NCBI GenBank assembly: GCA_964552465.1
Contig: CAZKGR010000019.1
Coordinates: 1,619 to 65,618, forward strand
Length of the DNA: 64,000 nt
Direction: 5' to 3'
Source: an uncultured bacterium
Lineage (GTDB): Bacteria > Electryoneota > Electryoneia > Electryoneales > Electryoneaceae
Shown here: one piece after another, positions 9,179 to 31,341 of the stretch
How positions within the stretch are numbered: position 1 is the stretch's first letter
Layout of the letters: each line of letters begins with the position of its first letter
Notes under the pieces: generated by a model
The model's database searches: none
What the model was told of the DNA's origin: nothing
What the model saw: the letters and a program-made list of their open reading frames with translations, nothing else
Position numbers and translations under genes: made by a program

Positions 9179-9229
9179 GACCTGAGATTCGAGAGACTAG
9201 AGACTAGAGACAAAAGACAAGAGACATTC

Positions 9230-9922
9230 ATGTCCCACCGAATACTGATAGTCGAAGACGACGAAGCGATTGCACTCGGACTGCAGATAAACTTGCAGCA
9301 CGACGGTTACAGCACTGAACTCGCTGTGGACGGCGAGGCCGCGTTGGTAAAAATCAGCGGGTGGAAGCCCGACCTGGTGCTGCTGGACGTTATGCTACCA
9401 AAACTAAGCGGATTCGACGTCTGCGAGCGAGTGCGGGACAGCGGTAATCGTGTTCCGATCCTGTTTCTCACAGCGAGAGATTTGCTCGACGACCGTCTTC
9501 AAGGGCTCGAGTTGGGTGGTGACGACTACATCACCAAACCGTTCTCGATGGATGAGCTGCGTGTTCGGATCAAGGCGATGCTGCGGCGACAAACGTGGTA
9601 CGAGGTCGTTCCGGATGTAGGAAGCAGCATCAACTTCGGCAGTAACACGGTAGACCTGTCTGCGTATCGCGCGACAACGCGCGAAGGTAAGGTTATGCTT
9701 ACCCAAAAAGAGACCATGGTACTCAAGTTACTAGTCGAGAACGAAGGCAAGGTGATTGATCGAGGCACGATTTTGAACAAAGTGTGGGGTGAGGAGATCT
9801 ACCCCAGCGGACGGACGGTTGACAACATCATCCTGAATCTTCGGCGACACTTTGAGGACGATCCGAAGAATCCACAACACATTTTCACCCACTACGGAGC
9901 CGGGTACTCGTTCCAGAGGTGA
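9230..9922 (+). CDS. OmpR/PhoB-family response regulator
   Basis: Receiver ILIVEDDE...LVLLDVMLP...YITKPF plus a C-terminal winged helix (LTQKETMVLKLLVENEGKVIDRGTILNKVWG). It lies 52 bp after the kinase gene. Confidence 0.9.
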   Translation: MSHRILIVEDDEAIALGLQINLQHDGYSTELAVDGEAALVKISGWKPDLVLLDVMLPKLSGFDVCERVRDSGNRVPILFLTARDLLDDRLQGLELGGDDYITKPFSMDELRVRIKAMLRRQTWYEVVPDVGSSINFGSNTVDLSAYRATTREGKVMLTQKETMVLKLLVENEGKVIDRGTILNKVWGEEIYPSGRTVDNIILNLRRHFEDDPKNPQHIFTHYGAGYSFQR

Positions 9923-13932: not shown

Positions 13933-15123
13933 TTAGAACTCAGCGCCGGTATACACCAACCGGATGAACCGCGGGCGGTATATGTCCGCGTAAGTGAAAT
14001 GATCCCAGAAATCCAGGCAATTGACATTGTAACTAATCAGCAATTCACCCGGTTCAGACAAACTCGGATGAGCCTTCGCGTTGTAGCACCAGGCGTCTGC
14101 GTCGGGGAAATCGTCCGGGACGGTGCTGGTATAAATGGGGTGCGTGATGCTCCACGGACCGCGAGGACTGAGCCCAATACGGAAGCCGATGGTACGGGTG
14201 ATCGTGTCTACGGTGAAAATCATGATGTAGCGGTTGTTCGGTAACGGTGTTACACTCATTTCCGATGACACCCGATTTGTCAAGCGCGCCGCCTGGGTGA
14301 AATCCGCCACCCACTGCTGTCCGTCAAAGAAACGCCACTGGTCTAAATCTGTGAACTGTTCTTCGGGCACACGCGCCACCAGCGAGTACTTGTCATACGG
14401 CACTTCTTCCAACCCGTAGATGTAAATGAAACCGTCAGGATTCGGTGCCCCGGCACGCTCAGTGTTCGCCATCAGCCCCGCTGTGAAACTGATTTCACCA
14501 CGATCTCCTTCCGCGGGTGCGTGAAACGGTAGTTCGTATTGCTGGTAATTGTTGAACGGTGGGGATGAGCCCGCCGGAATCCGAATGATAGCAGTGCCTG
14601 TGCGCACGAACCACAATTCCTGATCGCTGCGCATGCGCAACGCCAGGATATAGACAGCGTCCGGCAGCGAGATTCCGTCTCCCAGCCAATACCACTCGCC
14701 GGGCTGGCTGTTCGGTGTGTCGGGCACGAACATGGACGCCGCATTACCACCCTGCTGCCGGTAAATGAAATGGATGCTGTCTGGATCGACAATACCCGGT
14801 GGCAGGTAAGCCATGGTGTTGTTGATCATTGTAGTCCCGCCCAAGCGATTGCCCTGATCATCCACCTCGCCGATGAAAGTGTCGCTGAACACGAACAGAG
14901 TCTGGTTGGTGTTATGGGCACCGAAATGATCGTTGCCATCAACCGGGATGGAATAGATGCCGTCCGCGCCGGACCAGCCGGAATGCTGGTCAAACATCGC
15001 GTCCCATTCCGGTGCTTCCTCCACATACCAGTTCTGGGCGCTGGATACGCCGAAACCCATCAGAAGGAAGACAACGAGCAATAAAGCAGCAATTCGTGGC
15101 ATCTTGAAATCCTCGACAAACAT
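13933..15123 (-). CDS. Secreted protein, uncharacterised family (paralog 1 of 4; no T9SS CTD)
   Basis: Signal peptide then the conserved AQNWYVEEAPEW...SGW.GADGI.SIP...FVFSDTFIGEVD...PDTPNS.PG.WYW..DGI.L...YNAKAHP.LSEPGELL.SYNVN..DFW.HF..ADIYRPRF. The profile is beta-rich; the fold or glycoside-hydrolase affinity was not verified. Confidence 0.8.
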   Translation of the reverse strand: MFVEDFKMPRIAALLLVVFLLMGFGVSSAQNWYVEEAPEWDAMFDQHSGWSGADGIYSIPVDGNDHFGAHNTNQTLFVFSDTFIGEVDDQGNRLGGTTMINNTMAYLPPGIVDPDSIHFIYRQQGGNAASMFVPDTPNSQPGEWYWLGDGISLPDAVYILALRMRSDQELWFVRTGTAIIRIPAGSSPPFNNYQQYELPFHAPAEGDRGEISFTAGLMANTERAGAPNPDGFIYIYGLEEVPYDKYSLVARVPEEQFTDLDQWRFFDGQQWVADFTQAARLTNRVSSEMSVTPLPNNRYIMIFTVDTITRTIGFRIGLSPRGPWSITHPIYTSTVPDDFPDADAWCYNAKAHPSLSEPGELLISYNVNCLDFWDHFTYADIYRPRFIRLVYTGAEF

Positions 15124-15140
15124 GTCAGTTTGCTAACCAG

Positions 15141-16607
15141 CTATTTCACAACGGTAAACTTCTGAGTTGGAATGTTGTCCGCACCGTCAATTTGCAGGAA
15201 ATATGTCCCGGACGAGAACAGGTTTGCATTGAGCGACACGGTTTGTAGACCGGCGGATAGTTCCCCCCGGTGCAGGGTTTCAACCAGCCGTCCCATGATA
15301 TCATACACCGCAATGTTTACATCGGCCGTCATTGGCAGATCAAAGTTTAGCACCGCGGACGCATTAAATGGATTCGGCGCGATCACAGGGGCAGGAGTTA
15401 ACGTGATTTGCGATCCGATTTCGGCTCCTGGATTGTTCAGGATGCCTTGATCAAGAATCAGCTTCACGAACCGCGGGTGGTATATATCCGCATTGCTGAA
15501 ATGCGCCCAAAAATCGCTACAGTTGATGTTGTAACTGACCAGCAGCTCGCCCGGTTCGGACAGATGCGGATGCGCCTTCGCGTTGTAAGTGGTGATCGGG
15601 AGATCTGGCCAGATATCCGGTTCAGGCACCGTGTAGAAGACGTGATAGTCGCCCCACGGCCCCCACGGGGTCGGTGCAAGACGGAAAGCCAGCTCACGCC
15701 CAATCGTTCCGACCTGAAATACAAGGATATAGCGCCCATCCGGCAGTGGCGTGACACTCATTTCATGCGACACTCGATTAGTAACCCTGACAGCATCATT
15801 CATGTCATCCGACCACTGCCCCTGTCCGGCATAGAAACGCCACGCGCTGGGAATGGGGAAATGTTCTTCCGGCACGCGTGCGACTAGCATGTGCTTGTCC
15901 AGCCACGCATCTTCAGCACCGTAGATATAAATGTAGCCATCGGGGAAGTATGCGCCGGCACGTTCTGTGTTCGGCATAATCCCAATCGAGAACCTGCGTG
16001 TCCCGCGGTCGCCATTTTCAGGCAGATGGAACGGCAGATCGTATTGCTGATAATCGTTAAATGGTGGGCGATCGTGGTATGGCATACGAACCATCGCCGT
16101 TCCGTCGAGTGCAAATCCTCCTCCCATCGGCGTCCGCATGCGCCAGACGATAAAATAGACAGCGTCCTCGAGCGCGATTCCGTCACTAGGCCAATACCAC
16201 GTTCCCGGCGGTGCATTGGGAGTGTCGGGGACAAACATCGACTGTGGATTGTTGAACGTGCCCTTGTAGTAGAACTCAGACGTTATCGGATGAGGTCCAT
16301 CAGGCGGCCACCACGCTAAAGTGTTGTTGATCATGTGCGTATTCAGGCGGTTGCCGTTATTGTCGACTTCACCGATGAAGGTGTCGCTGAAAATGACTAG
16401 AGTATTATTCGTGTGATGTGCGCCGAATTGTTCGTTACCGTCCAATGGGACGGTGAAGATGCCGTCAGCGCCAGTCCAGCCATAATCACGGGTGACGACG
16501 CTATTCCAGCCCGGTGCGAGTTCCGTGTGCCAGTTCTGGGCACACACCAATCCGGAGTTGGCCAGGACCACGGTCAGGACGAATGCCGCACAAGTAGTTC
16601 TTTGCAT
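15141..16607 (-). CDS. Secreted protein, same family (paralog 2 of 4) with T9SS C-terminal sorting domain
   Basis: Same conserved core plus a C-terminal about 80 aa APNPFNASAVLNFDLP...GTYFLQIDGADNIPTQKFTVVK (Por/T9SS CTD). Confidence 0.8.
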   Translation of the reverse strand: MQRTTCAAFVLTVVLANSGLVCAQNWHTELAPGWNSVVTRDYGWTGADGIFTVPLDGNEQFGAHHTNNTLVIFSDTFIGEVDNNGNRLNTHMINNTLAWWPPDGPHPITSEFYYKGTFNNPQSMFVPDTPNAPPGTWYWPSDGIALEDAVYFIVWRMRTPMGGGFALDGTAMVRMPYHDRPPFNDYQQYDLPFHLPENGDRGTRRFSIGIMPNTERAGAYFPDGYIYIYGAEDAWLDKHMLVARVPEEHFPIPSAWRFYAGQGQWSDDMNDAVRVTNRVSHEMSVTPLPDGRYILVFQVGTIGRELAFRLAPTPWGPWGDYHVFYTVPEPDIWPDLPITTYNAKAHPHLSEPGELLVSYNINCSDFWAHFSNADIYHPRFVKLILDQGILNNPGAEIGSQITLTPAPVIAPNPFNASAVLNFDLPMTADVNIAVYDIMGRLVETLHRGELSAGLQTVSLNANLFSSGTYFLQIDGADNIPTQKFTVVK

Positions 16608-16703
16608 CTACATCTCCGCTCACTATCGACACAATGGAGAAACGAATTCACAGAATCGGCTTCGCGGTCACCATTGCTATATAGATAATTAACCTGCCTA
16701 TCG

Positions 16704-17876
16704 CTAAAACCGATTCCCCAAATAAATCAGTCGCACAAATCGTGGACGGTAGATTTCGGCGTGGTCGAAATGCGCCCAGAAATCATGAACGCTGACGTTA
16801 TAGCTGACCAGAAGCTCGCCCGGCTCGGACAAGTGTGGGTGTGCTTTGGCGTTGTAACACCACACTGGCATCCCGATATAGTCATCCGGTTCAGGGCAAT
16901 GATAGAATATGTGATACTCACCCCATGGTCCCCATGGAGTTGGACCTATTTTGAACGCGAGATCCCGCCCAATGGTGTCGAGTTGGTAGACCACGATGTA
17001 GCGTCCATCGGGCAGCGGCGTCACACTCATTTCTGGCGAGACGCGTCCCGCAGTGCTGACCGCGTTGCGGAAATCAGATATCCAACCATCCTGTCCGGCC
17101 CAGAATCGCCAGGCGTTGCCGTCTGTAAACTGTTCTTCGGGAACGCGGGCAACCAACAACCGTTTATTCATCGGAACTTCTTCAACCCCGTAGATATAGA
17201 TGTATCCATCCGGGAAAGGAGCGTTCGCACGTTCAGTATTGGGCATGATTCCGACACCGAAACTTATGCTACCACGAGTTTCATTGGCTGGTTCAAACAA
17301 ATCCAGTTCCCACTGCTGGTAGTGGTCAAACGGTGGTCGGGCGGTTGCTGGTAAACGGAGCATCGCGACTCCGTCACGGGCAAAACCAACCTGCTGGTCA
17401 GGTCGCATCCGCCAAGCGAGGAAATAAACCGAACTGTCAAGAGCGATTCCATCACTGGGCCAATACCAATGGTCAGGCTCAGAGTTGGGGGTATCAGGGA
17501 TAAATGTCGTAGCTGGAGAGCCGTCATCTTCAGCGTAATAGAACTGCGCGGTTTCAGGGTCAGGCACCCCAGGCGGCATCCATGCAAGAGTGTTCTTAAC
17601 CATTTGCGTGCCGGGCAAACGGTTCCCAGCGCTATCAACTTCGCCGATGAATGTGTCGCTGAAGACGAACAGCGTGTTCACGTAATTATGCGACCCGATG
17701 GTTTCATCACCGTTCAGTGGGATAGAAAAAATTCCATCGGCCCCGGTCCATCCTGAAGTACGGTGAAACACAGCACTCCACTCAGGGACTTCTTCGACAT
17801 ACCAGTTTTGTGCGTGGGATATGCCGAAGCCCGTCAGAATGAAGACCACGATCAGCGATGTTGCAGTTCTGGACAC
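16704..17876 (-). CDS. Secreted protein, same family (paralog 3 of 4; no CTD)
   Basis: Signal peptide plus the conserved core. Ends ...IYRPRFVRLIYLGNRF. Confidence 0.8.
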   Translation of the reverse strand: MSRTATSLIVVFILTGFGISHAQNWYVEEVPEWSAVFHRTSGWTGADGIFSIPLNGDETIGSHNYVNTLFVFSDTFIGEVDSAGNRLPGTQMVKNTLAWMPPGVPDPETAQFYYAEDDGSPATTFIPDTPNSEPDHWYWPSDGIALDSSVYFLAWRMRPDQQVGFARDGVAMLRLPATARPPFDHYQQWELDLFEPANETRGSISFGVGIMPNTERANAPFPDGYIYIYGVEEVPMNKRLLVARVPEEQFTDGNAWRFWAGQDGWISDFRNAVSTAGRVSPEMSVTPLPDGRYIVVYQLDTIGRDLAFKIGPTPWGPWGEYHIFYHCPEPDDYIGMPVWCYNAKAHPHLSEPGELLVSYNVSVHDFWAHFDHAEIYRPRFVRLIYLGNRF

Positions 17877-17913
17877 GTGTAATCCTCGTTATAACATCGG
17901 TTAGCTGACCAGC

Positions 17914-19380
17914 TTACTTCACGACAGTAAATCTTTGAGTTGGAGTGTTCTCCGCTCCTCTGACTTGCAAGAAATACGTTCCTGACGCGAAACGGCTGCC
18001 GTTCAGCGACAACGCTTGTTGTCCCGCTGGCAGCATTCCGGAATACAGTTGCTGGACCATGCGGCCAGCAATGTTGTAGATCGCGACATCCACTTTCCCT
18101 GCCTGCGGCAAATCGAATGTGATGACGGCGGACGCATTGAACGGGTTGGGCGCGATCAGCGGGGCGGGATGTACGGTCAATGTCATCCCTTCGGCGAATG
18201 TCGCTGGCATCAGAGCCGCGGGATTGTAGACGAGATTGATAAACCGCGGTCGATAGATATCGGGATAATCAAAGTGCGCCCAGAAATCAACATTATTTAC
18301 TGAATAACTCATGAGCAATTCGCCGGGTGCGCTGAGGTGCGGATAAGCCTTGGCGTTGTAAACGAAGGTGCCCGCCAGCGAATCCGGCTGCGGACAAGTG
18401 TAGAGTTCGTAGTATGGTGACCACGGTCCGACCGGACTCGCCCCGACCCGCGCAGCGACACTCCTGCCGACAGTGTTCAATTGAAAGATCATCAGGAAGC
18501 GACCGTCGGGCAGCGGACTCACACTAAGATCCATACCGCACTGCCCAGTCACCGGCACGGCGTCACTGAAATCCGGCACCCAGGCGAACCCATTCCAGAA
18601 GCGCCACGCGCTCAGTGTTGCGATTTCATCCTCGGGCACTCTTGAAACAAGCACGCGCTTGTTCTGTGGATTCACTTCGGCCTTGACGCCGTAGATGTAG
18701 ATATAGCCGTCGGGGAAGGGTGCACCGGAGGTGGTTGTGTTCGGCATTATGCAACCGCCGAAAGACTTTCCCCACATATAGTCGTTCGCCGGTGCCCAGA
18801 ATGGAATCTCATGCTGAATGTGATCTTCGAACGGCGGCAACGATCCGGGCGGAATCTCAAGCACTGCAGAACCAACCAATGTTGGTTCCATGCCTTCGAC
18901 AGTCACACGGTCAGTAAAGAGATATATGGTGCCGTCGGAAATGATTCCGTCTTTAAGCCAGTATTGATCACCGGGATTTGAGTTCGGCGTGTTCGGAATG
19001 AACATCGTTATCGGATTGTCGTTACCGTCAGTTCCCCAGATGAACTCGATTGTCTCAGGATCGGGCGGGCCAGGAGGCATTATGGCAAGCGTGTTGTGGA
19101 CCATTTGCGTGCCCGGTTGACGCTGACCGTTTACGACCTCGCCGATGAATGTATCGCCGAAGGTGAACATCGTGTAATCACTCAGGTAGCCGTTGGGTTG
19201 CTCTAGCCCCGACAACGGAAATCCGAAGGTGATATCCGCTCCCGTCCAGCCTGAAGTCTGGGCGAACAACGCGGTCCACTCCGGCGCTTCCTCGACATAC
19301 CAGTTCTGGGCGTGAGCCGCGTAGAAACCGGTAAATACGAGTACTGTCAATACTATGGAAACCGTTATTTGTCGCATCAT
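17914..19380 (-). CDS. Secreted protein, same family (paralog 4 of 4) with T9SS CTD
   Basis: Conserved core plus APNPFNASAVITFDLPQAGKVDVAIYNIAGRMV...GTYFLQVRGAENTPTQRFTVVK. Confidence 0.8.
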   Translation of the reverse strand: MMRQITVSIVLTVLVFTGFYAAHAQNWYVEEAPEWTALFAQTSGWTGADITFGFPLSGLEQPNGYLSDYTMFTFGDTFIGEVVNGQRQPGTQMVHNTLAIMPPGPPDPETIEFIWGTDGNDNPITMFIPNTPNSNPGDQYWLKDGIISDGTIYLFTDRVTVEGMEPTLVGSAVLEIPPGSLPPFEDHIQHEIPFWAPANDYMWGKSFGGCIMPNTTTSGAPFPDGYIYIYGVKAEVNPQNKRVLVSRVPEDEIATLSAWRFWNGFAWVPDFSDAVPVTGQCGMDLSVSPLPDGRFLMIFQLNTVGRSVAARVGASPVGPWSPYYELYTCPQPDSLAGTFVYNAKAYPHLSAPGELLMSYSVNNVDFWAHFDYPDIYRPRFINLVYNPAALMPATFAEGMTLTVHPAPLIAPNPFNASAVITFDLPQAGKVDVAIYNIAGRMVQQLYSGMLPAGQQALSLNGSRFASGTYFLQVRGAENTPTQRFTVVK

Positions 19381-19388
19381 CCAATCCC

Positions 19389-20942
19389 TTATTTCATCAA
19401 TACCGCCTTTTGCATCTGGGTACCCTGATCCGTGACTGTGGCGGATACGAAATACACACCACTCGCCAGGTTTGATCCATCAAGCACCAGCGAATGCTGA
19501 CCTGCTGTATAGCTGCCCTGAGCGAGGATTGCTGCCTGACGTCCGAGTGCGTCGTAAACAACCACGTTTACATGCGCAGCTTCGGGAAGCGTCAAGGTTA
19601 ACGATGTCGTCGGATTGAACGGGTTTGGATATGCCGTACTCAGCACGAATTCAGACGGCGCAGTGATATTTTCAGCCGCTGATCCAGCCAATTCGTCACC
19701 GAGTTGCGCTAATCCATCGCTGTGCCAGCCGCCAACAGCTATACCGTCTGTTCCTACCGCCAGCTTGCTGAAGCCGAAGCCGTCTTGAGCGATTGGCGTG
19801 GACGGGTCTGGTCCAGCGTACACGTTGAAAATGTAATCGCCTGCCGGTGCGAAGCCGGGAACATCTTGAGTCAGCAACGGCACGAAAATGTTCGCCTGCG
19901 CAGGCAGAATCACCGGAACACTTTCCACGAAGTACTCGAAACCGCTGGGCATGGTAGCTGTCGTCCAAATGCTGCCGAAAAACGGTGTCTGGTAGGTCGA
20001 CGTAATACCCAGGCTCCAGTTGAAGCTCCCGCCCAGCGCCGGTATCTGAATTGGTGGGCTCAGAGGGTTCGCATCAAGAACCAGGGTTTCCGGTGTGTCG
20101 CCGAGATTCATCCTGCGGACGGTTGACGCGGTCGTGAAATTCGGATCGGTTTCCCCAGGATATGAAAGCGCAAATGCGACTTCACCGTATCCCGGCGTAT
20201 ACCACGAATACGCCTTAGATACCGGAACTTCATAAATTCGACCGATTGGAACTTCAATCGGGATGCCAAAGAGATACCAGATCCCGACCGCATCCGCGTA
20301 ACCGCCGACCTGCGAATACACACGGAGAGCATCCACGTTGCCGCCGGGTAGAGTGACCGTACCCCAACCATCGCAGAGATTCTCGCCGCCAATCGTGATT
20401 TCAATTCTAATCTCGTCAAACAAGGGGATTGGATAGGGGATGTCATTCACGTCTATTGTAACCTCATGATAGATATTGATGCCCCAGGAATCGTTGTAGT
20501 CCAATGGCAACGGCATCAAAGGAATTTCAAATGGGAATGGGAACTCACCGCCAAGCTCTTCCACGTACAGAGTTATCCCGAGAACAGTCCATTGGCTGGC
20601 TGTGACCTGGTCATAGCGCCACGACGGTCCTTCGTCCAGGCCGAACGGAACCGGACCATAAGTAGCCCGGTTGGCCGCGGGGAACCACAGGTGCCATGGT
20701 GTATCTGACGGTGTAAAGATCTCTTCGTTTTGGATGGTGAACTGGGAAACTTGTGAGAAATCCCAAGACTGGTTCGCACCAGAAGCGCCGACATTCACCG
20801 CAACATCCGATTCGACCATGTATTCGAAGATCGTACCCGGTGTCATCGGAACATCCTGATCCGTGAAATTGATTTGTGCCAGCGCGTTTGAACCACTTGA
20901 CACAAGCAAAAAGACCAGCAATCCCGTAATTAACGTTTTCAT
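19389..20942 (-). CDS. Hypothetical secreted protein with T9SS C-terminal sorting domain (517 aa)
   Basis: Signal peptide. The C-terminus is AYPNPFNPTTSLTLTLPEAAHVNVVVYDALGRQ...GVYFVSATVTDQGTQMQKAVLMK. It lies 8 bp from the upstream paralog array on the same strand. Confidence 0.75.
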   Translation of the reverse strand: MKTLITGLLVFLLVSSGSNALAQINFTDQDVPMTPGTIFEYMVESDVAVNVGASGANQSWDFSQVSQFTIQNEEIFTPSDTPWHLWFPAANRATYGPVPFGLDEGPSWRYDQVTASQWTVLGITLYVEELGGEFPFPFEIPLMPLPLDYNDSWGINIYHEVTIDVNDIPYPIPLFDEIRIEITIGGENLCDGWGTVTLPGGNVDALRVYSQVGGYADAVGIWYLFGIPIEVPIGRIYEVPVSKAYSWYTPGYGEVAFALSYPGETDPNFTTASTVRRMNLGDTPETLVLDANPLSPPIQIPALGGSFNWSLGITSTYQTPFFGSIWTTATMPSGFEYFVESVPVILPAQANIFVPLLTQDVPGFAPAGDYIFNVYAGPDPSTPIAQDGFGFSKLAVGTDGIAVGGWHSDGLAQLGDELAGSAAENITAPSEFVLSTAYPNPFNPTTSLTLTLPEAAHVNVVVYDALGRQAAILAQGSYTAGQHSLVLDGSNLASGVYFVSATVTDQGTQMQKAVLMK

Positions 20943-21243
20943 CGTTCTTCCCCCTTCTCTATGCCCGGCATACGGCAGCCGTTATCCCCAGCTTTGTATG
21001 ATCAGATTAATCCAACTAGAATAAAACGAAGAACTCCAAAAATCTCTCCAATCAGTGTACGCACCGAAAGTTATCAGTCCAAGGAAAAGCGTGGGACGTC
21101 GCCAATAAGTAGGTCCAAATTGTCTCTCCGCTCCATAATCCAACCATCCGGCTCAGAGCGCGTAACGGTTTGCCTTTTCCATTCGTCGCACGTACGTTCC
21201 AGACCATTCATCAACATTCCAATTTCAGATTCAAGGAGTAACC

Positions 21244-22365
21244 ATGCACGACCCGCGTCACGACAAGCTTGCAAACCTGCTCGTCAACTATTCCTGCGAA
21301 ATTCAGCCCGGTGAAAAGGTGCTGATTGAGTGTTACGATACACCGGTCGAGTTCATCGATTCGATCGTCAAGGCTGTTTATGCGGCGGGCGGCCATCCGC
21401 TGCTCGAACTGAAACACAACAAGCTGATACGTACCATGCTCAACGGCGCATCCAAGGAATCGCTGGCGGCGATCCAGGATAGCGAACTGCATCGAATGAA
21501 GAACATGGACGCGTTCATCGGTGTTCGCGGTGTGTCGAACGCGAAAGAGTTGAGCGATGTGGAGTCTGACAAAAACGCGCTGTGGGGGACCGAGGTTTTC
21601 CAGCCGGTGCACGCGAACGAACGTGTGCCGAATACCAAGTGGGTTGTTCTGCGTTACCCGACTCCGGCGATGGCGATGATGGCAGACATGAGCACCGAAG
21701 CGTTCGAGGACTATTACTTCAAAGTGACCTCCGACGTTGACTACAAGAAAATGTCTGAAGCGATGACCCCGGCAGCTGATTATCTGCGTAACGCCGACCA
21801 GGTCCACATCACCGGCCCCGGCACCGATCTCAAATTCTCGATCAAGGGTATCGGAGCGGTCAAATGCGACGGACAGCGCAACATCCCGGACGGCGAAGTC
21901 TACTCCTGCCCGGTGCGCGACTCGGTGAACGGTACAATTCGTTACAACACACCGTCCAGCTACCATGGGTTCACGTTCAAGGACATCGAACTGACTTTCG
22001 AGAACGGTAAAATCGTCAAGGCGACCGCCAACGACACCAAGCGCATTAACGCGATCCTCGACACGGACGAAGGCGCACGCTACATCGGCGAATTCGCACT
22101 CGGCTGCAACCCGGCGATCGACTTCGCGATGGATGAGATCCTGTTTGACGAAAAGATCGGCGGCAGTTTCCACTTCACGCCGGGCAACGCGTACGACGAC
22201 ACCGATAACGGTAACCGTTCGGCTGTGCACTGGGACCTGGTTCTGATTCAGACGCCGGAATATGGCGGCGGCGAGATTCACATGGACGGCGAACTGATCC
22301 GCAAAGACGGCCTGTTCGTTCATCCGGCGTTCGAAGGATTGAATCCCGACAAGTTGATGGGGTAG
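21244..22365 (+). CDS. Aminopeptidase, M29 family (AmpS/PepS/aminopeptidase T-like)
   Basis: Full-length similarity pattern of thermophilic M29 aminopeptidases (LANLLVNYSCEIQPGEKVLI..., ...YIGEFALGCNP...GGSFHFTPGNAY...). The long antisense ORF 21211..22626 is a shadow. Confidence 0.85.
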   Translation: MHDPRHDKLANLLVNYSCEIQPGEKVLIECYDTPVEFIDSIVKAVYAAGGHPLLELKHNKLIRTMLNGASKESLAAIQDSELHRMKNMDAFIGVRGVSNAKELSDVESDKNALWGTEVFQPVHANERVPNTKWVVLRYPTPAMAMMADMSTEAFEDYYFKVTSDVDYKKMSEAMTPAADYLRNADQVHITGPGTDLKFSIKGIGAVKCDGQRNIPDGEVYSCPVRDSVNGTIRYNTPSSYHGFTFKDIELTFENGKIVKATANDTKRINAILDTDEGARYIGEFALGCNPAIDFAMDEILFDEKIGGSFHFTPGNAYDDTDNGNRSAVHWDLVLIQTPEYGGGEIHMDGELIRKDGLFVHPAFEGLNPDKLMG

Positions 22366-23491: not shown

Positions 23492-26400
23492 ATGAAACAA
23501 CAGCACACCATCATATTGATTGCTTTCCTGGTTGTATTCCTTAACGTTGGAATCGCGCGCGCTGCCGCTCCGAATCAATCACCAGTTCAACATCGAGAAT
23601 CCTCATTCGACTTCGACTTTCGTGCGCAAACGTGGTATGGCCTGAACGAAGCCACATCCGCCCGTTCCAACGAGGAGGCTGCGCGGGAGTATCTGCTACG
23701 TTACCCTGACCGATTCGGCGGAGTCGAATCGATAGAGGAGCTCGAATTTATCAGCGAGAGGACAAGCCCCTCCGGCCACCATCTGCTGTTTCGGCAAATG
23801 GTCAGCAATATCCCCGTATACCGTGGTGAAGTGCGGGTGCACATGGACCAGCAGCGGGTTATAAAAGCCGTGACCAGCACTGTTCTGCCGGTCTCGCAGT
23901 TGGTTGTAACACAACCCGCAATACCCGCAGAAACGGCGATTCAGACTGCGATTGACCGCATCGGAGAACCACGACCAGACTCACAACCTGACACCGATCA
24001 ATTGATTGTAATTGATCATGAATCTGGCGACGGGTACGTTGTGTGGCGAGTACGCCTGTCTTGCATCAATCCTCTCGGCGACTGGGAGTTGCTGATCGAC
24101 GCATTAAACGGCGATGTCCTGTACATCGACAACCGGATGGCGTTCGAAAACGGTGAAGGGTTGGCATTCGATCCGGACCCAATTAGTACCGCTGGGGTTG
24201 AATATGGCGAACCGGGCTACACGGACGACGACGATGCCGACACGCCCGAGTTGAACGTCGAACGCGTCCCCGTGCTGCTGCGCGACATCAGTTTCCATGA
24301 AGGCGCTTATTGGTTAGAAGGGCCGAATGTCGAAATTACTGATTTCGAAGCTCCTGCAATCACGCCTGTTTCTTCAGCAACATTGAACGGATTCACCTAC
24401 ACCCGCAGCGAGTCCGGGTTCGAAGACGTGAACGCGTACTACCACATCGACTCGATGCAGCGCCTGATACAATCACTCGGTTTTACGGACCTTCAGAACG
24501 GACCGATCTCGGCAGATCCCCATGCCTGCAACGGGCAGGACATGTCTTACTATTCGCCGGAGTTCAACCGTCTTGGATTTGGCGAAGGCGGAGTGGATGA
24601 CGCCGAAGATGCCGATGTGCTCCGTCACGAATACGGCCACGCGTTGCACCATGACGCGGTCGGAGGTGAAGTGTGGGGCGTAGACATCCGTTCAATTGCC
24701 GAAGGCATCTGTGACTATTGGGCATCGAGCTTGTCAGATAGAACCGAACCGTTTCACAGTTACTGGGTTTACAACTGGGACGGTCACAATGAGTTCTGGG
24801 ACGGCCGTTTCGTCACGACGGAAGATGTTTACCCAGATGACTGGTCGGCGGACTTATATCGCAACGGGACCATCTGGGCACATGCGCTGTGGTCGTTCAG
24901 CCGAGATGTCAACAATGCGGATGTGGCAGATGCGATCGTCGCGCAATCTCTGTACTACATGGCATCAGGTATTGATCCCGAAGCCGCCGCGCAAGCCCTG
25001 CTGCAGGCTGAGGATGATCTGTATGGCGGGCAGTACCGGATTGATGTCGTGACCGCCCTCGCGGAAAAAGGATTCATGGATGCCTATGGTTCAATGGAAG
25101 GATACATCGGCAACGAGTTGACTGGGAATCCGGTTGAGGGCGCGCAGATCACCGTCGAAGGTGTGTCCGCCTTCTCCGAAGCGAACGGTCATTACCTGCT
25201 TGAGCAAATTCCCATTGGACACTGGGACGCAGAATTTTCTGCCGAGGGATTCCGAAACACTTCACGCAATGTGTATATCGAGACTGAACAAACCCTGCAA
25301 TTCAGCATATTGTTGTCGCCAGTGATTGCAACTGTTGATGTCGATTCGCTGAACCTGCACGCGTACATCGGCGAGAATGCCGATTCCAGTATCACCCTGA
25401 CATCGTTGAACAGTGACATTTATTACATCATGCGGGCTGATCCGGTAGGTTTAGATCCCATACCGCCATATGAAGCACATGCCGCAATTCCGCTCAACCT
25501 TCCCCCGGAAGAAATGCAGGACGTGGTGTTCGTAAACGGCTGTTATTACGTGCTGCACACCGCAGCGCAGGCAGTGTACAGTGTGTATGTGCTGGACCAG
25601 AACGGTTTCCCAGTACGCAGCTTCCTGCAACCTACCGATCTTGGGATACCGTTCCGAGGATTGACCACGGATGGTGAATTCCTCTATTCCATCGTGTCAA
25701 GCACCATAGTTAAATATGACACACTCGGTGTAGTTCATCATCAGTTTGAGGACGTTCATCCAACCTACAGGTGGTTGGCTAAGACTCAGTTCGACGGACA
25801 TTTCTGGTGTGCTCGTGAGGACGGAGTGATCGAACCGTTTGGATTGGGTGTCGGTCACTACTGGGAACCCATTGAGACGGGGTTGCCGATCAATGGGATT
25901 GCCTATGATATAGGGCGAGGGGATCTGGCTTCTGTCGTATTACTAACCGATCCCGAAGGTTCGGCGCCGGAAGTGCATTTCTTCGACACGACTCACCATA
26001 CCCTGGTTGATGAGCATTACACGCTGGCAAACGAATTTGGTGTGCCCCTGGGAGCGGCTGTGTTCACCGGTTTGCAGCAACCGATTGACTACCGCTACCT
26101 GGTGACTCTGATGGACGAGGGTGCCGGCCAGCAGCTGCAACTGTACCGTATTCGTTGGACAATCCCGTATATCTCGTTTGATGGATTGTCTGGCCTGGTG
26201 TATGAAAACGAGTCAGATACAGTCGCTGTCCACGCTGAATCGCAATTCCTGGAAACGGGCTTCTATGAAGCGATGCTGAAGATTTTCTTTCCGCACGGCG
26301 GATCGGCACTGGAAGTGCCGTTTACACTACGAATTACGGCCGTCAATGCACCGCAATTCGCAAATGCCGGACAACCACGCGAGTTCGCCGTGACCGCGCC

Positions 26401-26644
26401 ATCGCCTAATCCGTGCAATGCGGCAACGGTGATGACTGTAACTACACCACGAGCTGGCGAAATCAAGTTGAAAGTTTATGATATCCTCGGACGGCAGGTT
26501 GATCATATACGGTGGCAGCAGGATGCAGGATCGCGACGCATCACATGGACGCCCGCACCTGGAACTGCGAGTGGTTTGTACCTGGTGCGAGTGCAAATTG
26601 AGGAGTACTCACCAATCACGCGCAAAATTGTCGTTGTGAAGTGA
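23492..26644 (+). CDS. Secreted HExxH zinc metalloprotease (M4/M36-like FTP propeptide + catalytic domain + carboxypeptidase-regulatory-like beta domain + T9SS CTD), 1050 aa
   Basis: Signal peptide. FTP-like propeptide motif (HHLLFRQMVSNIPVYRGEVRVHMD). Zinc site VLRHEYGHALHHD. CarbopepD_reg-like GNPVEGAQITVEGV...NGHYLL. C-terminal T9SS domain ...GLYLVRVQIEEYSPITRKIVVVK. Confidence 0.8.
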   Translation: MKQQHTIILIAFLVVFLNVGIARAAAPNQSPVQHRESSFDFDFRAQTWYGLNEATSARSNEEAAREYLLRYPDRFGGVESIEELEFISERTSPSGHHLLFRQMVSNIPVYRGEVRVHMDQQRVIKAVTSTVLPVSQLVVTQPAIPAETAIQTAIDRIGEPRPDSQPDTDQLIVIDHESGDGYVVWRVRLSCINPLGDWELLIDALNGDVLYIDNRMAFENGEGLAFDPDPISTAGVEYGEPGYTDDDDADTPELNVERVPVLLRDISFHEGAYWLEGPNVEITDFEAPAITPVSSATLNGFTYTRSESGFEDVNAYYHIDSMQRLIQSLGFTDLQNGPISADPHACNGQDMSYYSPEFNRLGFGEGGVDDAEDADVLRHEYGHALHHDAVGGEVWGVDIRSIAEGICDYWASSLSDRTEPFHSYWVYNWDGHNEFWDGRFVTTEDVYPDDWSADLYRNGTIWAHALWSFSRDVNNADVADAIVAQSLYYMASGIDPEAAAQALLQAEDDLYGGQYRIDVVTALAEKGFMDAYGSMEGYIGNELTGNPVEGAQITVEGVSAFSEANGHYLLEQIPIGHWDAEFSAEGFRNTSRNVYIETEQTLQFSILLSPVIATVDVDSLNLHAYIGENADSSITLTSLNSDIYYIMRADPVGLDPIPPYEAHAAIPLNLPPEEMQDVVFVNGCYYVLHTAAQAVYSVYVLDQNGFPVRSFLQPTDLGIPFRGLTTDGEFLYSIVSSTIVKYDTLGVVHHQFEDVHPTYRWLAKTQFDGHFWCAREDGVIEPFGLGVGHYWEPIETGLPINGIAYDIGRGDLASVVLLTDPEGSAPEVHFFDTTHHTLVDEHYTLANEFGVPLGAAVFTGLQQPIDYRYLVTLMDEGAGQQLQLYRIRWTIPYISFDGLSGLVYENESDTVAVHAESQFLETGFYEAMLKIFFPHGGSALEVPFTLRITAVNAPQFANAGQPREFAVTAPSPNPCNAATVMTVTTPRAGEIKLKVYDILGRQVDHIRWQQDAGSRRITWTPAPGTASGLYLVRVQIEEYSPITRKIVVVK

Positions 26645-26688: not shown

Positions 26689-28491
26689 CTATTTGGGCCC
26701 AAACCGCTTGTTCCACATTTCGTTGATAGCTCTGGGTGGATCATCCCACGGCGTGTCGTAAAAATTCCGCAAATCGTATATGTAACCCTGACGGACCGGT
26801 GGACATCGACGCGTACCTTCGGCCATCATCCAGTATTTGGGAATCTGCAAATCGCCAATTAACCACTGGTTGTTTTCAAAAATTGTGTGGAAATGGTAAT
26901 AGCAACGAGCGATTAATGGATCAACCCCAAACGTGAAGAAGGTGCTCCCTTCATCACCCGTACGGCTGAAAATGTTGTTGTAGTACTGGTTGTTCCACGC
27001 TTGAAAATAGATTGGCTCGCCGTAGGGTTCGATGATCCCATCTTCCATGATGTAATCCACCGAATGAATCAGTACAGGGAATCCAGACTGACTGATGATA
27101 GTCGAGTTCTGGATTATTGCTTCGTCACATGCGCTGATTAACAATGCGCTGGAACGGAAACGATAGATACGGTCGTCGTCAACGGGACGGCTGTTGCGAC
27201 TCATTTGACAATTGTCGATCAGAACCGGACCAAAGCAACGTTCGATAAACAGACCACGGTACTGATTGAACATGAGGGTGCTGTTCATGACAGTTATATC
27301 GCGCCCGTCCTTGTCGAACCACAGGCCGTGACCATGATTGTACCGTCCGGTATAGTTATCAACATAGATTCGACGGGTACGGAAAAACTTGATTCCGCCA
27401 GCGTCATACGCGACCGTGCCAGCATCATAACCACGCCAGTTGTTGAATTCGATAGTACAATTGTTGACGTAGAACGCTTGAGCGTGCGCGATCATCATCC
27501 CGTAAATGCCATTTTCGTAAGCGTTTACGTTTTCAATCACGTTCCAGGGCGGATGCGTGTTCTCCATCAGCACCCAATCAACAGGATTATACGGATCTAG
27601 CGGTATGGTCGGACAGTTTCGGACCGACAGGCCATAAGAACTGCTGTGGTGGAAATCGCAATCACGGATCGTGACTTTAGGTAACCAGGAAAAATCAACC
27701 ATCCCCGTTTTGATAAACGGGCTGCCATAAGCAAACTCGATATTGTGCAGTTCGACACCGCGGCTATTGCGCGCAGACAACAATTTCTGGCAAGCCGAGA
27801 AATAAACCGGGACTACGTTCGGATCCTGGTTGGTGTTGATGCGGACGGTGCCGGTTCCTTCCAGTGGAACACAAAAGCTGTTTTCCTTGACCATCACAAT
27901 TTCAGGCAGGGACACCTGCGTGAGGCGAACATCACCCTGCATCAAGAGTTCACGTCGGAGAATAGTCCGTCCATCACGCCATTCACCTGGAAATGGACTG
28001 GGCTGGAATATGTCAATCAAACAGCCAATCCAGCCATAAAAACCCTCAGCACCACATGTGAACGCGTCAAGACTCAAATAGTAGCCAAAATCGTACGACC
28101 ACGGAGCTTCCCACACACCTCCACCGAGTGACGTCCAGTCCGTGATTGGTGTTTCAGACAGGCCGCTGATCACGGGTTTTTCGTCACCGACACCATTCAG
28201 AATCAAGTAGGGGAAGTCATAACTGGCGACAGACAGGGTTGAGTCGTCGGTCATGTGGTAAGTGCCCGGCATAATATTCAGTGTGACATTCGCGTCACCA
28301 GGAATATCACTGTAGAATTGAATATATGAGAATGCGGTTTGCAGCCCAGGCATGCAGTTCAGGCTGTCAACCCCGTTGAATTCTCCGGACCCTAGAGGGC
28401 TGACCCAATAGCTGTACTGCCCCTTTGCGGTGGGGATAAATAGCTGCAGAGTCACAAACAATAACAATAAAAACGATCTAGCGAACATCAC
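26689..28491 (-). CDS. Secreted right-handed parallel beta-helix (pectate-lyase-fold) protein, paralog A
   Basis: Signal peptide. Repeated beta-helix coils (VELHNIEFAY, VTIRDCDFHHSSSYGLSV, NVNAYENGIYGMMIAH, VNNCTIEFNNWRGY, MNSTLMFNQYRGLFIE, LIDNCQMSRN). No T9SS CTD. Confidence 0.75.
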   Translation of the reverse strand: MMFARSFLLLLFVTLQLFIPTAKGQYSYWVSPLGSGEFNGVDSLNCMPGLQTAFSYIQFYSDIPGDANVTLNIMPGTYHMTDDSTLSVASYDFPYLILNGVGDEKPVISGLSETPITDWTSLGGGVWEAPWSYDFGYYLSLDAFTCGAEGFYGWIGCLIDIFQPSPFPGEWRDGRTILRRELLMQGDVRLTQVSLPEIVMVKENSFCVPLEGTGTVRINTNQDPNVVPVYFSACQKLLSARNSRGVELHNIEFAYGSPFIKTGMVDFSWLPKVTIRDCDFHHSSSYGLSVRNCPTIPLDPYNPVDWVLMENTHPPWNVIENVNAYENGIYGMMIAHAQAFYVNNCTIEFNNWRGYDAGTVAYDAGGIKFFRTRRIYVDNYTGRYNHGHGLWFDKDGRDITVMNSTLMFNQYRGLFIERCFGPVLIDNCQMSRNSRPVDDDRIYRFRSSALLISACDEAIIQNSTIISQSGFPVLIHSVDYIMEDGIIEPYGEPIYFQAWNNQYYNNIFSRTGDEGSTFFTFGVDPLIARCYYHFHTIFENNQWLIGDLQIPKYWMMAEGTRRCPPVRQGYIYDLRNFYDTPWDDPPRAINEMWNKRFGPK

Positions 28492-28719
28492 GGAATCTCA
28501 CGGGATAACACAGGAATACAACAGTTGCCGGTCAATATACTTAAAGCCGTCATGAAGATGCGGAGGATAATCGGATTGCGCAATTATTTCTGAGGCAGGA
28601 ACGTATTTGTAAACAACTAGAATCCAAAGAACTACCAAAGTCCCTGAGAGACACAAGCCCCAAACGAGATGGGGCTTGTCATGTTGGTTCAATGTGATTT
28701 CATGTCTAATGGGGATCGG

Positions 28720-29295
28720 CACAGCAACACTGTTACCCGGCGTGGAGCGATGGAAACGGATGTTTTTTGTTTGACCGCTCTCGCACCACGCGCGGGTCAT
28801 AACTTCTTGCCAGCGGTTGAGATTAGTCAACGTCGGCACACTTTTGCCTGGCGTAGCGCAGCGGATTCGGACGTTATGTTTGTTTGACCGTCCCCACGCC
28901 ACGCACAGGCCTGATTTCTCGCCAAACGTCGAACTTTCAACGTCGGCACACTTTTGCCTGGCGTAGCGCGGCGGATACGGACGTTGTGTTTGTTTGACCG
29001 TCCCCGCGCCACGCACAGGCCTATACTTATCGCTTGTCAAGCGAAGCGTCTTCTGATGATGACCGGATTCAAGCGATTGACTCAAAAGTTGCCTGGCGTG
29101 AACCGATGGAAACGGGGTCCAGTCGCCGAGTGTTGACCGTCCACGATCCACGCTCAGGCCTGAGATCTCTCTCCAGTCGAACTATATCCTGTCAAACAAC
29201 AGAACTGCTAAACTTTTGCCCGGTGCGGCGCGACGGTTACGGACCGTTGTTAGTGTTTGACCGACCCCGCACCACACACGGGCCAATTCCAATCC
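28720..29295. repeat. Tandem array of about five degenerate 110-140-bp palindromic units (core ...cttttgcctggcgtagcgc-N-cggac-N-tgtttgaccgtcc-ccgcgccacgcacaggcc)
   Basis: Unit cores (ttgaccg) sit at 28771, 28884, 28994, 29133 and 29257. The 5' arm gcctggcgtagcgcgg pairs with the 3' arm ccgcgccacgcacaggc in each unit. The array is intergenic between the two beta-helix paralogs. Confidence 0.75.
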
Positions 29296-29329
29296 TTCCA
29301 GATTACGCCTGGAAGGAGTTATTTCTTGA

Positions 29330-31159
29330 TCAAGGTTCCCAATACGGGCTGTCGTAAATGTCTCGCAGATCGTAGTTGTTGCCATATTCGATTGGCGGAC
29401 AGAAGCGTACCAGTTCAGCAACAGCTTCCCACTGGTGATTGTCTTGTCCTTGAGACACGAAGTAGACTTGATTGAAATCGGTGTGGAACATGTAGTAGCA
29501 ACGGAACATGATTGCTTCCACCACAAACCACATCCACTGTAAGTCATGGTCTGAACGAACTATCGTGCAGTGTTCGAATTTATTGTTTGCCGTCTGCAAG
29601 TATTCTTCCTCGCCATATGGGGCAAACAAACCCGGCTCAAGCAGGAAGTCAGGTGAATGCAACATGACCGGATACCGATATGGATCGCTGATCGTACAGG
29701 AACGCACAGTCATGGTGTCCGTAGCGCTGATGCCGATGGCGGACGGTCGAATCCGGTGCATGGACGTATCAATCGGTTGATTATTGTTCTGAACGGTTAC
29801 GTATTCCAGCAAAATCGGACCAGGGCTGCGTTCCACGTAGAAACCACGGTAGTAGTTATTTTCGAGAACGCTACTGCGCAGGGTTAAATCGCGGCCGTCA
29901 AGATCAAACCAGATCCCGGCACCGTAGTTATACTCGGCAAGCACATTGCGAACTTCACTGTTTCGACAACGGAACAGCTTCATCCCACCAGTATCATACT
30001 CCATCGTACCAGATTCGTAGCCGCGCAAATTGTTGTGGCGAATGATGTTTCCGTCATGCAACAGGCCCTTGGAATGTGCTATCAACATGCCGTAGAAGCC
30101 GTTGTCGCTCGCCGTACAATTCTTAACCTCCCACCAACCTGGGGAATCGGCCTCATCGATGTAGATGAATTCTGATCCTGGATCGTTGACATTCTCTGGA
30201 CGCATCGGCATGCGGCGGATCGATAATCCATCAGCGTTACTATGATGGAATGTGCAATTCTCGACAATCGCGGTTTCCGAGGTGCTGATGTCGAGCAAAC
30301 CACCCTTGATGTATGGATTGCCGTACGCGAAATCGATGTTGCGAACTTCGACACCGCGTGTGTCGCGAATTGCCAGTAAATACTCCGCATTCGCTGCGTA
30401 AACAGGATGGTCGTTCGGGTCGAGGGTGCTGTTGATGCGGATGACGCCGGTACCTTCCAGCGGAGTATTGAACGTCTGGTCCATGATGTCGACGAATTCC
30501 GGCATCGTCACCTGTGTGAACCGTTTGCCGTTCTGAACGATGTATTCACGACGAATCATCGTGTGACCATCACGCCACTGATTAGTCCCAAGGTTCGGGA
30601 CCCAGTTTTCAATCTGACACCCGATCCAACCGTTGAAGCTGGGGCCGCAGACGTAGTCATCAAGCTCACCGCCAAACCAACCGAAATCATGATCCCAGGA
30701 CGCAGCCCAAACATTCCCGCCGAGGTTAGTCCACGGACCTAACGGCTCGCGTTCGAGGCCGGATATCAACGGACGATATTCTCCGGCCGCTCCAATTCCA
30801 CCCAGCCCTTCAAACACCACATACGGCTTATCCCACCCCTGCCAACGCAAAAGTGAGTCGTCGCTTGTGTGATATGTGCCAGGCAAAATCATGAAGGTTA
30901 CGTGATCGTCGCCGGTTATGTCTTCGTTCATGCGTACTTCCTGGGTAGCTTCAAACAGCCCGGGCATCGAGTTCCCAGGGTCTGAACCACTGAAATCGCC
31001 CGCACCAGACGGACTTACATAGTAGATGTAGTCCACCGCGTACCCGCTGAAAGGAACCAGCAACAGCAACAATAGTATTTTGACAATTCCCTTCATGACG
31101 ACCTCGTGCAGCATGTTTCGCGTTTCCGTAAATTGAGACACGGAAATTGTTATTAACAC
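29330..31159 (-). CDS. Secreted right-handed parallel beta-helix protein, paralog B
   Basis: Collinear with 26689..28491 (for example VEVRNIDFAYGNPYIKGGLLD, VENCTFHHSNADGLSI, NCTASDNGFYGMLIAH, RHNNLRGYESG, ENNYYRGFYVE). Signal peptide present. Confidence 0.75.
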   Translation of the reverse strand: MLITISVSQFTETRNMLHEVVMKGIVKILLLLLLVPFSGYAVDYIYYVSPSGAGDFSGSDPGNSMPGLFEATQEVRMNEDITGDDHVTFMILPGTYHTSDDSLLRWQGWDKPYVVFEGLGGIGAAGEYRPLISGLEREPLGPWTNLGGNVWAASWDHDFGWFGGELDDYVCGPSFNGWIGCQIENWVPNLGTNQWRDGHTMIRREYIVQNGKRFTQVTMPEFVDIMDQTFNTPLEGTGVIRINSTLDPNDHPVYAANAEYLLAIRDTRGVEVRNIDFAYGNPYIKGGLLDISTSETAIVENCTFHHSNADGLSIRRMPMRPENVNDPGSEFIYIDEADSPGWWEVKNCTASDNGFYGMLIAHSKGLLHDGNIIRHNNLRGYESGTMEYDTGGMKLFRCRNSEVRNVLAEYNYGAGIWFDLDGRDLTLRSSVLENNYYRGFYVERSPGPILLEYVTVQNNNQPIDTSMHRIRPSAIGISATDTMTVRSCTISDPYRYPVMLHSPDFLLEPGLFAPYGEEEYLQTANNKFEHCTIVRSDHDLQWMWFVVEAIMFRCYYMFHTDFNQVYFVSQGQDNHQWEAVAELVRFCPPIEYGNNYDLRDIYDSPYWEP

Positions 31160-31341
31160 GAATTCTTACTTTCGTTGGTAGAAGTATCTGAATAATATTT
31201 CCCGAAAGCAATAGCTCTCGGAGAATATTATAACGAAAGTAAAACTGTTATAAGTTTTGTGAAACTACAGAGTATGACAGGGGATGCTACATAAATACGG
31301 AGAAAAGAGCGGAAAAAAGAACTCCAAACTGAGTGGTGCAC

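Follow-up and report, generated by a model that had tools for sequence, protein, structure and literature searches.

What fills the gap between two genes for secreted beta-helix proteins in an uncultured bacterium of the Electryoneaceae? The stretch analyzed here, 64,000 nt of contig CAZKGR010000019.1 (assembly GCA_964552465.1) and hereafter called the window, carries two beta-helix genes on its minus strand, which flank an intercistronic gap of 838 bp (28492-29329). An original prediction, made from the sequence alone, gave this gap as 840 bp and proposed that it holds five degenerate palindromic units. Comparison with related genomes makes it highly probable that the gap contains a tandem array of one structured RNA element, which belongs to the gene strand, is specific to this locus and is shared by four genomes of a narrow Calditrichota-related clade. 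Judged by its good comparative support, the array is a new predicted RNA motif with a narrow distribution (four genomes, three lineages). It is filed within the broad kind of tandemly repeated structured bacterial RNA, outside every named family.

The units in the window were placed by a covariance model (CM R1), and all their coordinates, collected in Table 1, refer to the minus strand. Five units of 65-71 nt were called, spanning 28734-29284, with 5′ ends that lie 124, 139, 110 and 113 nt apart in gene order; the number of units, their position between the paralogs and their irregular periods are those that had been predicted, the periods to the nucleotide. A repeat search recovered all five units and their register (families D1-D3), while Tandem Repeats Finder detected only the 2.5 most similar copies. 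A degenerate pattern of the 3′ arm matched five times in the window, always inside the array, where shuffles lead one to expect 0.11 matches. Every unit folds into a bulged hairpin of ~21 bp, which bears out the proposed pairing of 5′ and 3′ arms. When the whole 838-nt gap is folded, the units form separate hairpins, except for arm-swapping between two near-identical units. Units 3 and 4 share not only their own sequence but also the first 18 nt of their following spacers, which marks them as recent duplicates.

Across all arrays the unit is a bulged hairpin of 65-74 nt in three parts. The outer stem (GGCCYG / CRGGC) has one bulged nucleotide, and the second stem (GCGUGG.NNN / NNN.CCACGC) covaries freely in its upper part. 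In canonical units the apical part consists of two 3-bp helices, GGA:UCC and CGG:CCG, with a 2-nt bulge between them, and of an A/C-rich loop of 15-20 nt that begins UCAAAC, giving the consensus GGCCUG-N-GCGUGG...GGA-CGG-UCAAAC(N9-14)-CCG-NN-UCC...CCACGC-CAGGCA. The conserved loop of the original prediction is therefore not all loop, since it holds both of these helices, yet the helices do close an apical loop. Variant units keep the basal stem and differ in their apical parts. Two sub-variants had been proposed and are real, the 'cgatggaaacgg' type including a class whose apical motif, CACUCGGC, is found in each of the four arrays. Ten stem residues are invariant, as are G1 and A78 at the flanks; a bulge (U, C or A) occupies column 7 in every unit, and columns 14/66 are mostly mismatched. 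The loop-proximal residues GGACGGUCAA...CCG.NUCC are fixed along with the ten stem residues, the upper basal stem covaries and the spacers randomize.

The evidence for a structured RNA comes from paired substitutions. Pairs were counted in alignment A4, which holds 24 units from four genomes and 21 pairs, or 481 cells. In this set 95.4% of the cells are paired, compared with 31-42% when the partners are slid by 1-3 columns. Changes on both sides are found in 11 of the 21 pairs (56 cells), and none of 500 shuffles reached the observed covariation score. RNAalifold, applied to a MAFFT alignment of 19 units, returns 15 basal pairs; compensatory changes occur in eight of these, and hardly any pair is broken. 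At covarying positions as many as four types of pair are seen; columns 15/65, for instance, appear as GC, UA, AU and UG, and columns 16/64 as CG, GC, AU and UG. The outer stem of unit 5 in the window (GACCCG/CGGGUA) carries two compensatory changes (pairs 2/77 and 5/74). With compensatory changes above controls, the units qualify as structured non-coding RNA, and a tandemly duplicated structured RNA was one of the identities that had been offered for them. The original prediction had also named two findings that together would count against it, confinement of the units to this site and a lack of compensatory changes in the stem. Of these the first is observed, the units being found at this locus alone, whereas compensatory changes are plentiful.

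The strand of the functional molecule is indicated mainly by wobble pairs. The 14 basal pairs include 18 G·U or U·G cells, at six positions, and no A·C cell, so the opposite strand would hold 18 mismatches. This tolerance of G·U in the absence of A·C points to an RNA (or single strand) of the gene (minus) strand as the functional molecule. Minimum free energy (MFE) also favors the gene strand in all ten units of the window and of the related array L015, as in unit 1 of the window, with -37.3 kcal/mol for the gene strand and -29.8 for the opposite strand. Across the units hairpin stability ranges from -26 to -41 kcal/mol, unit 3 of the window reaching -40.7 kcal/mol with a z score of -5.9.

The downstream beta-helix protein has few homologs (6 matches), and relatives of the locus were found through their contigs. 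L016-L020 represent the window's own species, and a genome resembling L024 is present as two fragments, L022 and L025; the comparative set of 24 units comes from the window, L015, L021 and L024, four genomes in three independent lineages. These share a gene order of MFS transporter, AMP-dependent ligase, a 266-aa RMD1-3/TPR-like protein, beta-helix 1, array and beta-helix 2, and all 24 units have the same orientation, on the gene strand. RNase R is 82% identical to that of the window in the L015 genome and 79% in the L021 genome; its best named relatives are a Calditrichota metagenome-assembled genome (MAG) at 65% and then Candidatus Electryonea at 47%. Taken with the sorting domains of the type IX secretion system in neighboring genes, these identities assign the organism to an uncultured lineage of the Fibrobacterota-Chlorobiota-Bacteroidota group, close to Calditrichota. 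Between the window and L015 the units are 63-87% identical, whereas spacers reach 47-67% against a shuffled-spacer baseline of 48%, so it is whole units and not spacers that are conserved, as had been predicted. The more distant relatives L026, L028 and L033, whose AMP-ligase is 66-67% identical, keep the ligase and TPR-like pair and have neither the beta-helix genes nor the units, and contigs of a relative at 69% stop before the informative region. In L028 a terminase-containing prophage-like block (16103-21743) lies a few kb downstream of the AMP-ligase/TPR pair, replacing the beta-helix genes.

The arrays turn over in copy number while keeping their place. Comparison of the same intergenic site, as had been suggested, gave 5 units in the window and 5, 8 and 6 in L015, L021 and L024. 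The L021 array is made of four (variant + canonical) pairs and the L024 array of three, and, as the junction spacer reveals, recombination between near-identical canonical units removed or added one pair. Units 3 and 4 of L015 have identical flanking spacers, and among the inter-unit segments (25-84 nt) two were duplicated along with their units. To judge from the sequences, array copy number shifts by unequal crossing-over. The CACUCGGC apical variant is present as unit 2 of the window, unit 2 of L015, unit 7 of L021 and unit 5 of L024; since all four arrays have it, the subtypes predate the split of these lineages. Unit 2 of the window accordingly finds its nearest cross-lineage unit in unit 2 of L015 (87% identity).

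Spacers can also be followed across lineages in one case. The GAAGACGCUUCG...AAGCGAUAA sequence around a small spacer hairpin of the window (Table 1) is homologous to the spacer preceding unit 2 of L015, which has a hairpin at 9259-9277. This spacer occupies 29022-29089 (minus strand), before unit 3, in the window and 9204-9287, before unit 2, in L015; it follows the CACUCGGC variant in the former and precedes it in the latter, so that units and spacers have been reshuffled and not merely duplicated. Ahead of unit 1, past the stop codon of beta-helix 1, a hairpin is found both in the window and in L015, but the two are unrelated. Several short-read (Logan) contigs start or stop inside the array (L019 1-126, L020 1-123, L025 7028-7155). 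Repeats thus break assemblies, and array copy numbers in short-read MAGs need caution.

The unit was found at no second site. With filters off, CM R1 detected no copy outside the array in the 64-kb window, where the next best scores were at most 14 bits and the top two of these were the reverse strands of the units themselves. The same model gave no further copy in the flanks of L015, L021 and L024, nor in 44 kb more around RNase R from two array-bearing genomes. In total ~173 kb were searched (the 64-kb window and ~109 kb from three other genomes), with one locus per genome. A blastn search of the array against plasmid and phage collections returned no match. The Rfam scan that had been proposed came back empty as well: no Rfam 15 family reached its gathering threshold in the window or matched the array at E <= 10, and the L021 array gave chance-level matches only, with 13-16 bits against thresholds of 44-70.

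How the array is transcribed can be approached from its borders. The stop codon of beta-helix 1 is followed by unit 1 at a distance of 6 nt in L021 and L024, of 45 nt in the window and of 53 nt in L015, and the spacers of L021 measure 25-40 nt. A sigma-70 consensus scan revealed no promoter-like sites, and no conserved block precedes the units; the 3′ flank of the units is AAAGUGUG, and none has a U-tract terminator. Because the stop codon is close, the spacers are short and promoters or terminators for single units are missing, co-transcription with beta-helix 1 is the simplest reading. A module of two hairpins follows the array in three of the four genomes (window, Table 1; L021 7453-7495; L024 15245-15290). 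In L021, L022 and L024 it consists of a GC-rich, terminator-like hairpin of 8 bp and a UUUUCUCUCUC tail, whose CUCUC pairs with GAGAG to make the second hairpin. This second hairpin (CUCUC...GAGAG or GUCUC...GGGAC) is kept despite sequence change, and in L015 the first post-array hairpin lacks significant stability (z -0.43). The block TATATT lies beyond the hairpin pair, 50-75 nt upstream of the beta-helix 2 start; it is a candidate -10 box and would fit a separate promoter for beta-helix 2. The array itself ends 245 nt before the beta-helix 2 start codon in the window and 245-270 nt before it across loci.

From these observations a mechanism can be proposed, though tentatively, in which the structured array serves as a multi-site platform in a 3′ untranslated region. 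The beta-helix 1 mRNA would carry the array in its tail, as 3′ untranslated or intercistronic sequence; this transcript would end at the post-array hairpin pair, and beta-helix 2 would have its own promoter. The repeated hairpins may then act in cis, offering several sites to a putative sequence-specific RNA-binding factor (a protein or nuclease) that would determine how stable the beta-helix 1 transcript is or how it is processed, and how much read-through reaches beta-helix 2. A sequence-specific trans factor is favored over a passive exonuclease block because, against a covarying upper basal stem and randomized spacers, the loop-proximal sequence and part of the stem do not change. An effect in cis is likelier than a global role because the array occurs only where the beta-helix paralogs occur.

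Several observations count against this interpretation or against parts of its basis. Only three independent lineages are available and units within a genome are recently duplicated, so that the covariation counts overstate the number of independent events. The folds of both strands, which had been proposed as a check, favor the gene strand in the window and L015, but L021 and L024 do not show this MFE bias: there the strands are about equal, and the opposite strand is better by ~1 kcal/mol in most units. A clear U-rich tail exists only in L021, L022 and L024 and doubles there as the 5′ arm of the second hairpin, and termination at this point is therefore uncertain. TATATT has no recognizable -35 partner, the sigma-70 consensus scan having found no full promoter, and no gene for an RNA-binding protein is linked to the locus. 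Lastly, pattern scans of genome, metagenome and viral contig collections gave single chance matches only, none of which scores with the covariance model and which, where inspected, lay in high-GC coding DNA; the pattern fixed a covarying column and fits window-type units only, so absence elsewhere was weakly tested.

Four other explanations compete with the platform, in decreasing weight: an independent or processed small RNA (sRNA) array, a passive stabilizer, a leader of beta-helix 2 and a DNA element like the repetitive extragenic palindromes (REP). In the first, which is unlikely, a multi-hairpin non-coding RNA of its own, or a polycistronic precursor processed into unit sRNAs, would act in trans as a sponge or scaffold or through target-pairing A/C-rich loops. 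Several near-identical hairpins with exposed and conserved A/C-rich loops would suit such a role, the post-array hairpin pair could end a transcript, and copy number varies as in arrays of sibling sRNAs, for which NsiR1 provides a tandem precedent (PMC9045159). However, the 6 nt between stop codon and unit 1 in L021 and L024 leave no room for a promoter, and the missing promoter motifs and U-tracts argue in the same direction. The sole target idea tested was pairing of the A/C-rich loops with the U/G-rich signal-peptide codons of the beta-helix genes, suggested by an 11/12 match seen by eye in L021; it was rejected, as duplex energies are no better within a species than across species. The loops of L024 differ from those of L021, while the putative signal-peptide-codon target is unchanged. 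Rather improbable, too, is a role as passive barriers to 3′-5′ exonucleases, in which the hairpins would be sequence-independent stabilizers of beta-helix 1 mRNA like the malE-malF REP hairpins of E. coli. REP stem-loops are established as stabilizers of upstream mRNA in the account of Newbury et al. (1987) given in PMC7509114, and the array does place stable hairpins directly 3′ of a coding region. For a barrier, though, one stable hairpin would do, and 5-8 copies are kept; the invariance of loop-proximal sequence and stem residues across genera, against randomized spacers, argues for sequence-specific recognition instead.

Still less probable is a 5′ leader of beta-helix 2, composed of tandem protein- or ligand-binding elements that would control post-array termination or downstream translation. 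The array does lie upstream of beta-helix 2 on the same strand, and the terminator-like hairpin between array and gene in L021, L022 and L024 resembles an attenuator. The cis-regulatory leader of the original prediction nevertheless loses ground: the first unit abuts the preceding stop codon, the array stops well short of the next start codon, with the hairpin pair and then TATATT in between, no Rfam riboswitch or leader matches down to E = 10, and no alternative anti-terminator pairing appears in the 838-nt fold. The same prediction had likened the units to REP sequences and bacterial interspersed mosaic elements (BIMEs), and selfish or structural DNA palindromes of this type, or resembling miniature inverted-repeat transposable elements, with RNA structure incidental, are a very unlikely identity. 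REP/BIME sequences are dispersed in tens to hundreds of extragenic copies, with alternating units and a REP-associated tyrosine transposase (RAYT) gene in the genome; in E. coli their density is about one BIME cluster per 15 kb, at which about ten more loci would be expected in the ~173 kb. The array shares with them clustered, extragenic, imperfect palindromes in an intercistronic gap between co-oriented genes, some units with GTAG/CTAC, copy numbers that differ between close relatives, and RNA hairpins 3′ of a coding region that could protect mRNA. It differs in its units of 67 nt against about 35, in their single orientation (24/24), in conserved loop sequence and in being fixed at one syntenic site across genera, with no other copy in the DNA searched. 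Wobble pairs of the basal stem are tolerated on one strand only (18 vs 0), and there are neither target-site duplications nor terminal-repeat boundaries. No RAYT (Y1 transposase) gene is annotated among the neighbors of the four loci, the rest of the genomes not having been searched. Finally, a repeat protein encoded by the region can be excluded for practical purposes. An open 217-aa frame runs along the gene strand (28498-29151) and is called by automatic gene finders in L016 and L017, but it has no Pfam hit, and no gene-strand frame of at least 50 aa passes through the L015 units, while those in the L021 units are short (55-78 aa) and none spans the array. Successive units lie in different frames, as their spacings are not multiples of 3, and substitutions preserve base pairs, not codons; the frame is an artifact of the repeats, as the original prediction had held.

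Known tandem or multivalent systems resemble the array in single respects. In function it comes nearest to the stabilizing intercistronic REP hairpins, to multi-hairpin sponges (CsrB/RsmZ) and to tandem sibling sRNAs (NsiR1). CsrB and RsmZ likewise present many similar hairpins in one RNA, with a conserved short motif and a hairpin number that varies between species. CsrA sites are GGA in hairpin loops, whereas the GGA of canonical units lies in the predicted GGA:UCC helix and the exposed conserved sequence is UCAAAC; in addition, Rfam gives no CsrB/Rsm match, and the array abuts a coding region and is not a free-standing gene. ToxI of type III toxin-antitoxin systems is also a tandem direct-repeat RNA upstream of a co-oriented gene. 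Its repeats are contiguous, of about 36 nt, and precede an endoribonuclease toxin, in contrast to a period of 110-139 nt between genes for secreted beta-helix proteins. Integron attC sites have RYYYAAC ... GTTRRRY core sites at the hairpin base, one site per cassette, and an intI gene; the stem base of the array is GGCCYG...CRGGCA in 24/24 units, no cassettes lie between units and no integrase is found among the neighbors of the four loci. A CRISPR array, with its short repeats of constant period and unique spacers of near-constant length, had already been dismissed, and rightly so: the periods are irregular (110-139 nt), the conserved part is the 67-nt unit, with inter-unit segments of 25-84 nt, and Pfam assigned no Cas family to any gene within 10 kb in the four genomes. 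Antitermination of the ANTAR type by a neighboring response regulator was considered and rejected, the regulator being REC+HisKA with no RNA-binding domain.

Two further systems share a tandem layout with the array. NsiR1 of Nostoc consists of 12 tandem copies of about 60 nt, each with its own promoter (DIF1 motif) (PMC9045159). The array resembles it in having direct tandem copies of a ~60-70-nt structured RNA, slightly diverged and some identical, beside a specific gene. Its spacers, however, are unconserved and can be only 25 nt long, and neither a conserved promoter nor a U-tract terminator is present; its units are therefore probably co-transcribed, unlike those of NsiR1. TIGR units yield 36-nt RNAs with box C/D motifs and are encoded beside a Nop-domain Tas gene (PMC12045711). 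Like the units of the array, they are stem-loops in tandem, built on a conserved framework in which internal segments vary more, but the 'variable' parts of the array are conserved between genera and so are not acquired spacers. In none of the four genomes is there a Nop-domain gene within 10 kb. A box C/D or TIGR identity was rejected, as the motifs are sporadic: a box C-like string is present in 5/24 units and in 0/5 window units, and CUGA takes a consistent loop position in the canonical units of L021 and L024 only. Unit 3 of L021 (6784-6857) has a perfect box C string, AUGAUGA, and L015 has one box C-like string with one mismatch.

Table 1. Features of the array locus in the window, and the arrays compared with it.
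Feature	Position	Strand	Description
Beta-helix paralog 1	29330..31096	-	588 aa from conserved ATG; signal peptide; Pfam Beta_helix 3e-20
Hairpin between beta-helix 1 stop codon and unit 1	29293..29317	-	9 counted pairs, 7-nt loop
Unit 1 (first in gene order)	29217..29284	-	canonical-like apical part GUCGGUCAAACACUAAC; CM R1 75.6 bits, E 1e-14
Unit 2	29090..29160	-	variant, CACUCGGCGAC apical motif; CM R1 65.1 bits
Small spacer hairpin	29030..29044	-	UCGCUU-GAC-AAGCGA, read from sequence
Unit 3	28955..29021	-	canonical, GGA-CGG-UCAAACAAACACAAC-GU-CCG-UA-UCC; CM R1 82.3 bits, E 3e-16
Unit 4	28845..28911	-	canonical; 94% identity to unit 3 (repeat family D4, CM R1)
Unit 5 (last in gene order)	28734..28798	-	CM R1 74.3 bits
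Two-hairpin module after array	28640..28679	-	repeat family I5; 10-bp GC-rich hairpin 28653-28679, then GUCUC-UCA-GGGAC 28640-28652
TATATT (gene strand)	28534..28539	-	longest invariant block upstream of beta-helix 2 at four loci (alignment A3)
217-aa ORF, spurious	28498..29151	-	reads through units 2-5
Beta-helix paralog 2	26689..28488	-	599 aa; signal peptide; Pfam Beta_helix 1.5e-19; P0001 100% identical
Array L015			5 units; JGI Ga0675941_000026
Array L021			8 units; ENA ERZ21873832 ctg9781l
Array L024			6 units; GCA_020444425.1

The genes around the array are themselves often duplicated. The two beta-helix paralogs are 42% identical, and the array stands directly 3′ of the first, whose stop codon is 29330-29332. 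At 50-70 nt upstream of the beta-helix 1 start codon there is a block of ~27 nt, GTAAGAATTC(G/A)(T)GTTTAATAACAATTTC (window 31143-31169, minus strand; L015 about 7250-7280; L021 about 4700-4730), which is nearly identical in the window, L015, L021 and L024 and unrelated to the region upstream of beta-helix 2. The block may serve beta-helix 1 as a promoter or leader element. The GTG start (31159) of a 609-aa open reading frame falls inside it, and the true start of beta-helix 1 is therefore probably the conserved ATG at 31096. Tandem DUF5005/DUF4185 paralogs, some with sorting tails of the type IX secretion system (T9SS), are located at 13933-20942 (minus strand) in the window, 17547-21785 in L016 and 13358-17843 in L036, and a T9SS protein of 1050 aa is encoded at 23492-26644; with the beta-helix genes, these make the region rich in duplicated secreted-protein genes. 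In two relatives, RNase R is accompanied by two or three clustered cold-shock-domain (CSD) genes (L035 5701-6322 and 13547-13762; L036 6392-7278). Structured RNA is acted on by RNase R and by Csp proteins alike.

To our knowledge, there is essentially no RNA biology for this candidate lineage of Calditrichota relatives. The significance of the array is limited by a motif known from four genomes in three lineages and by a function that is inferred. Its architecture is unusual, however, in that homologous hairpins are held in tandem at one intercistronic site across genera while their copy number turns over, and it fits neither dispersed palindromic repeats nor sRNA arrays with a promoter for each copy. 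A broader and more doubtful possibility is that the array exemplifies a new class of multivalent bacterial regulatory RNA, in which 5-8 copies of a 67-nt hairpin module in an mRNA tail would be cut into unit-length sRNAs or would titrate a putative RNA-binding protein specific to this lineage of the Fibrobacterota-Chlorobiota-Bacteroidota (FCB) group, with the (variant + canonical) pairs, as in L021 (4) and L024 (3), as the functional unit. If the units do bind a specific factor, they would offer a handle on the post-transcriptional control of secreted beta-helix proteins and would add one more type to the short list of multivalent bacterial RNAs.

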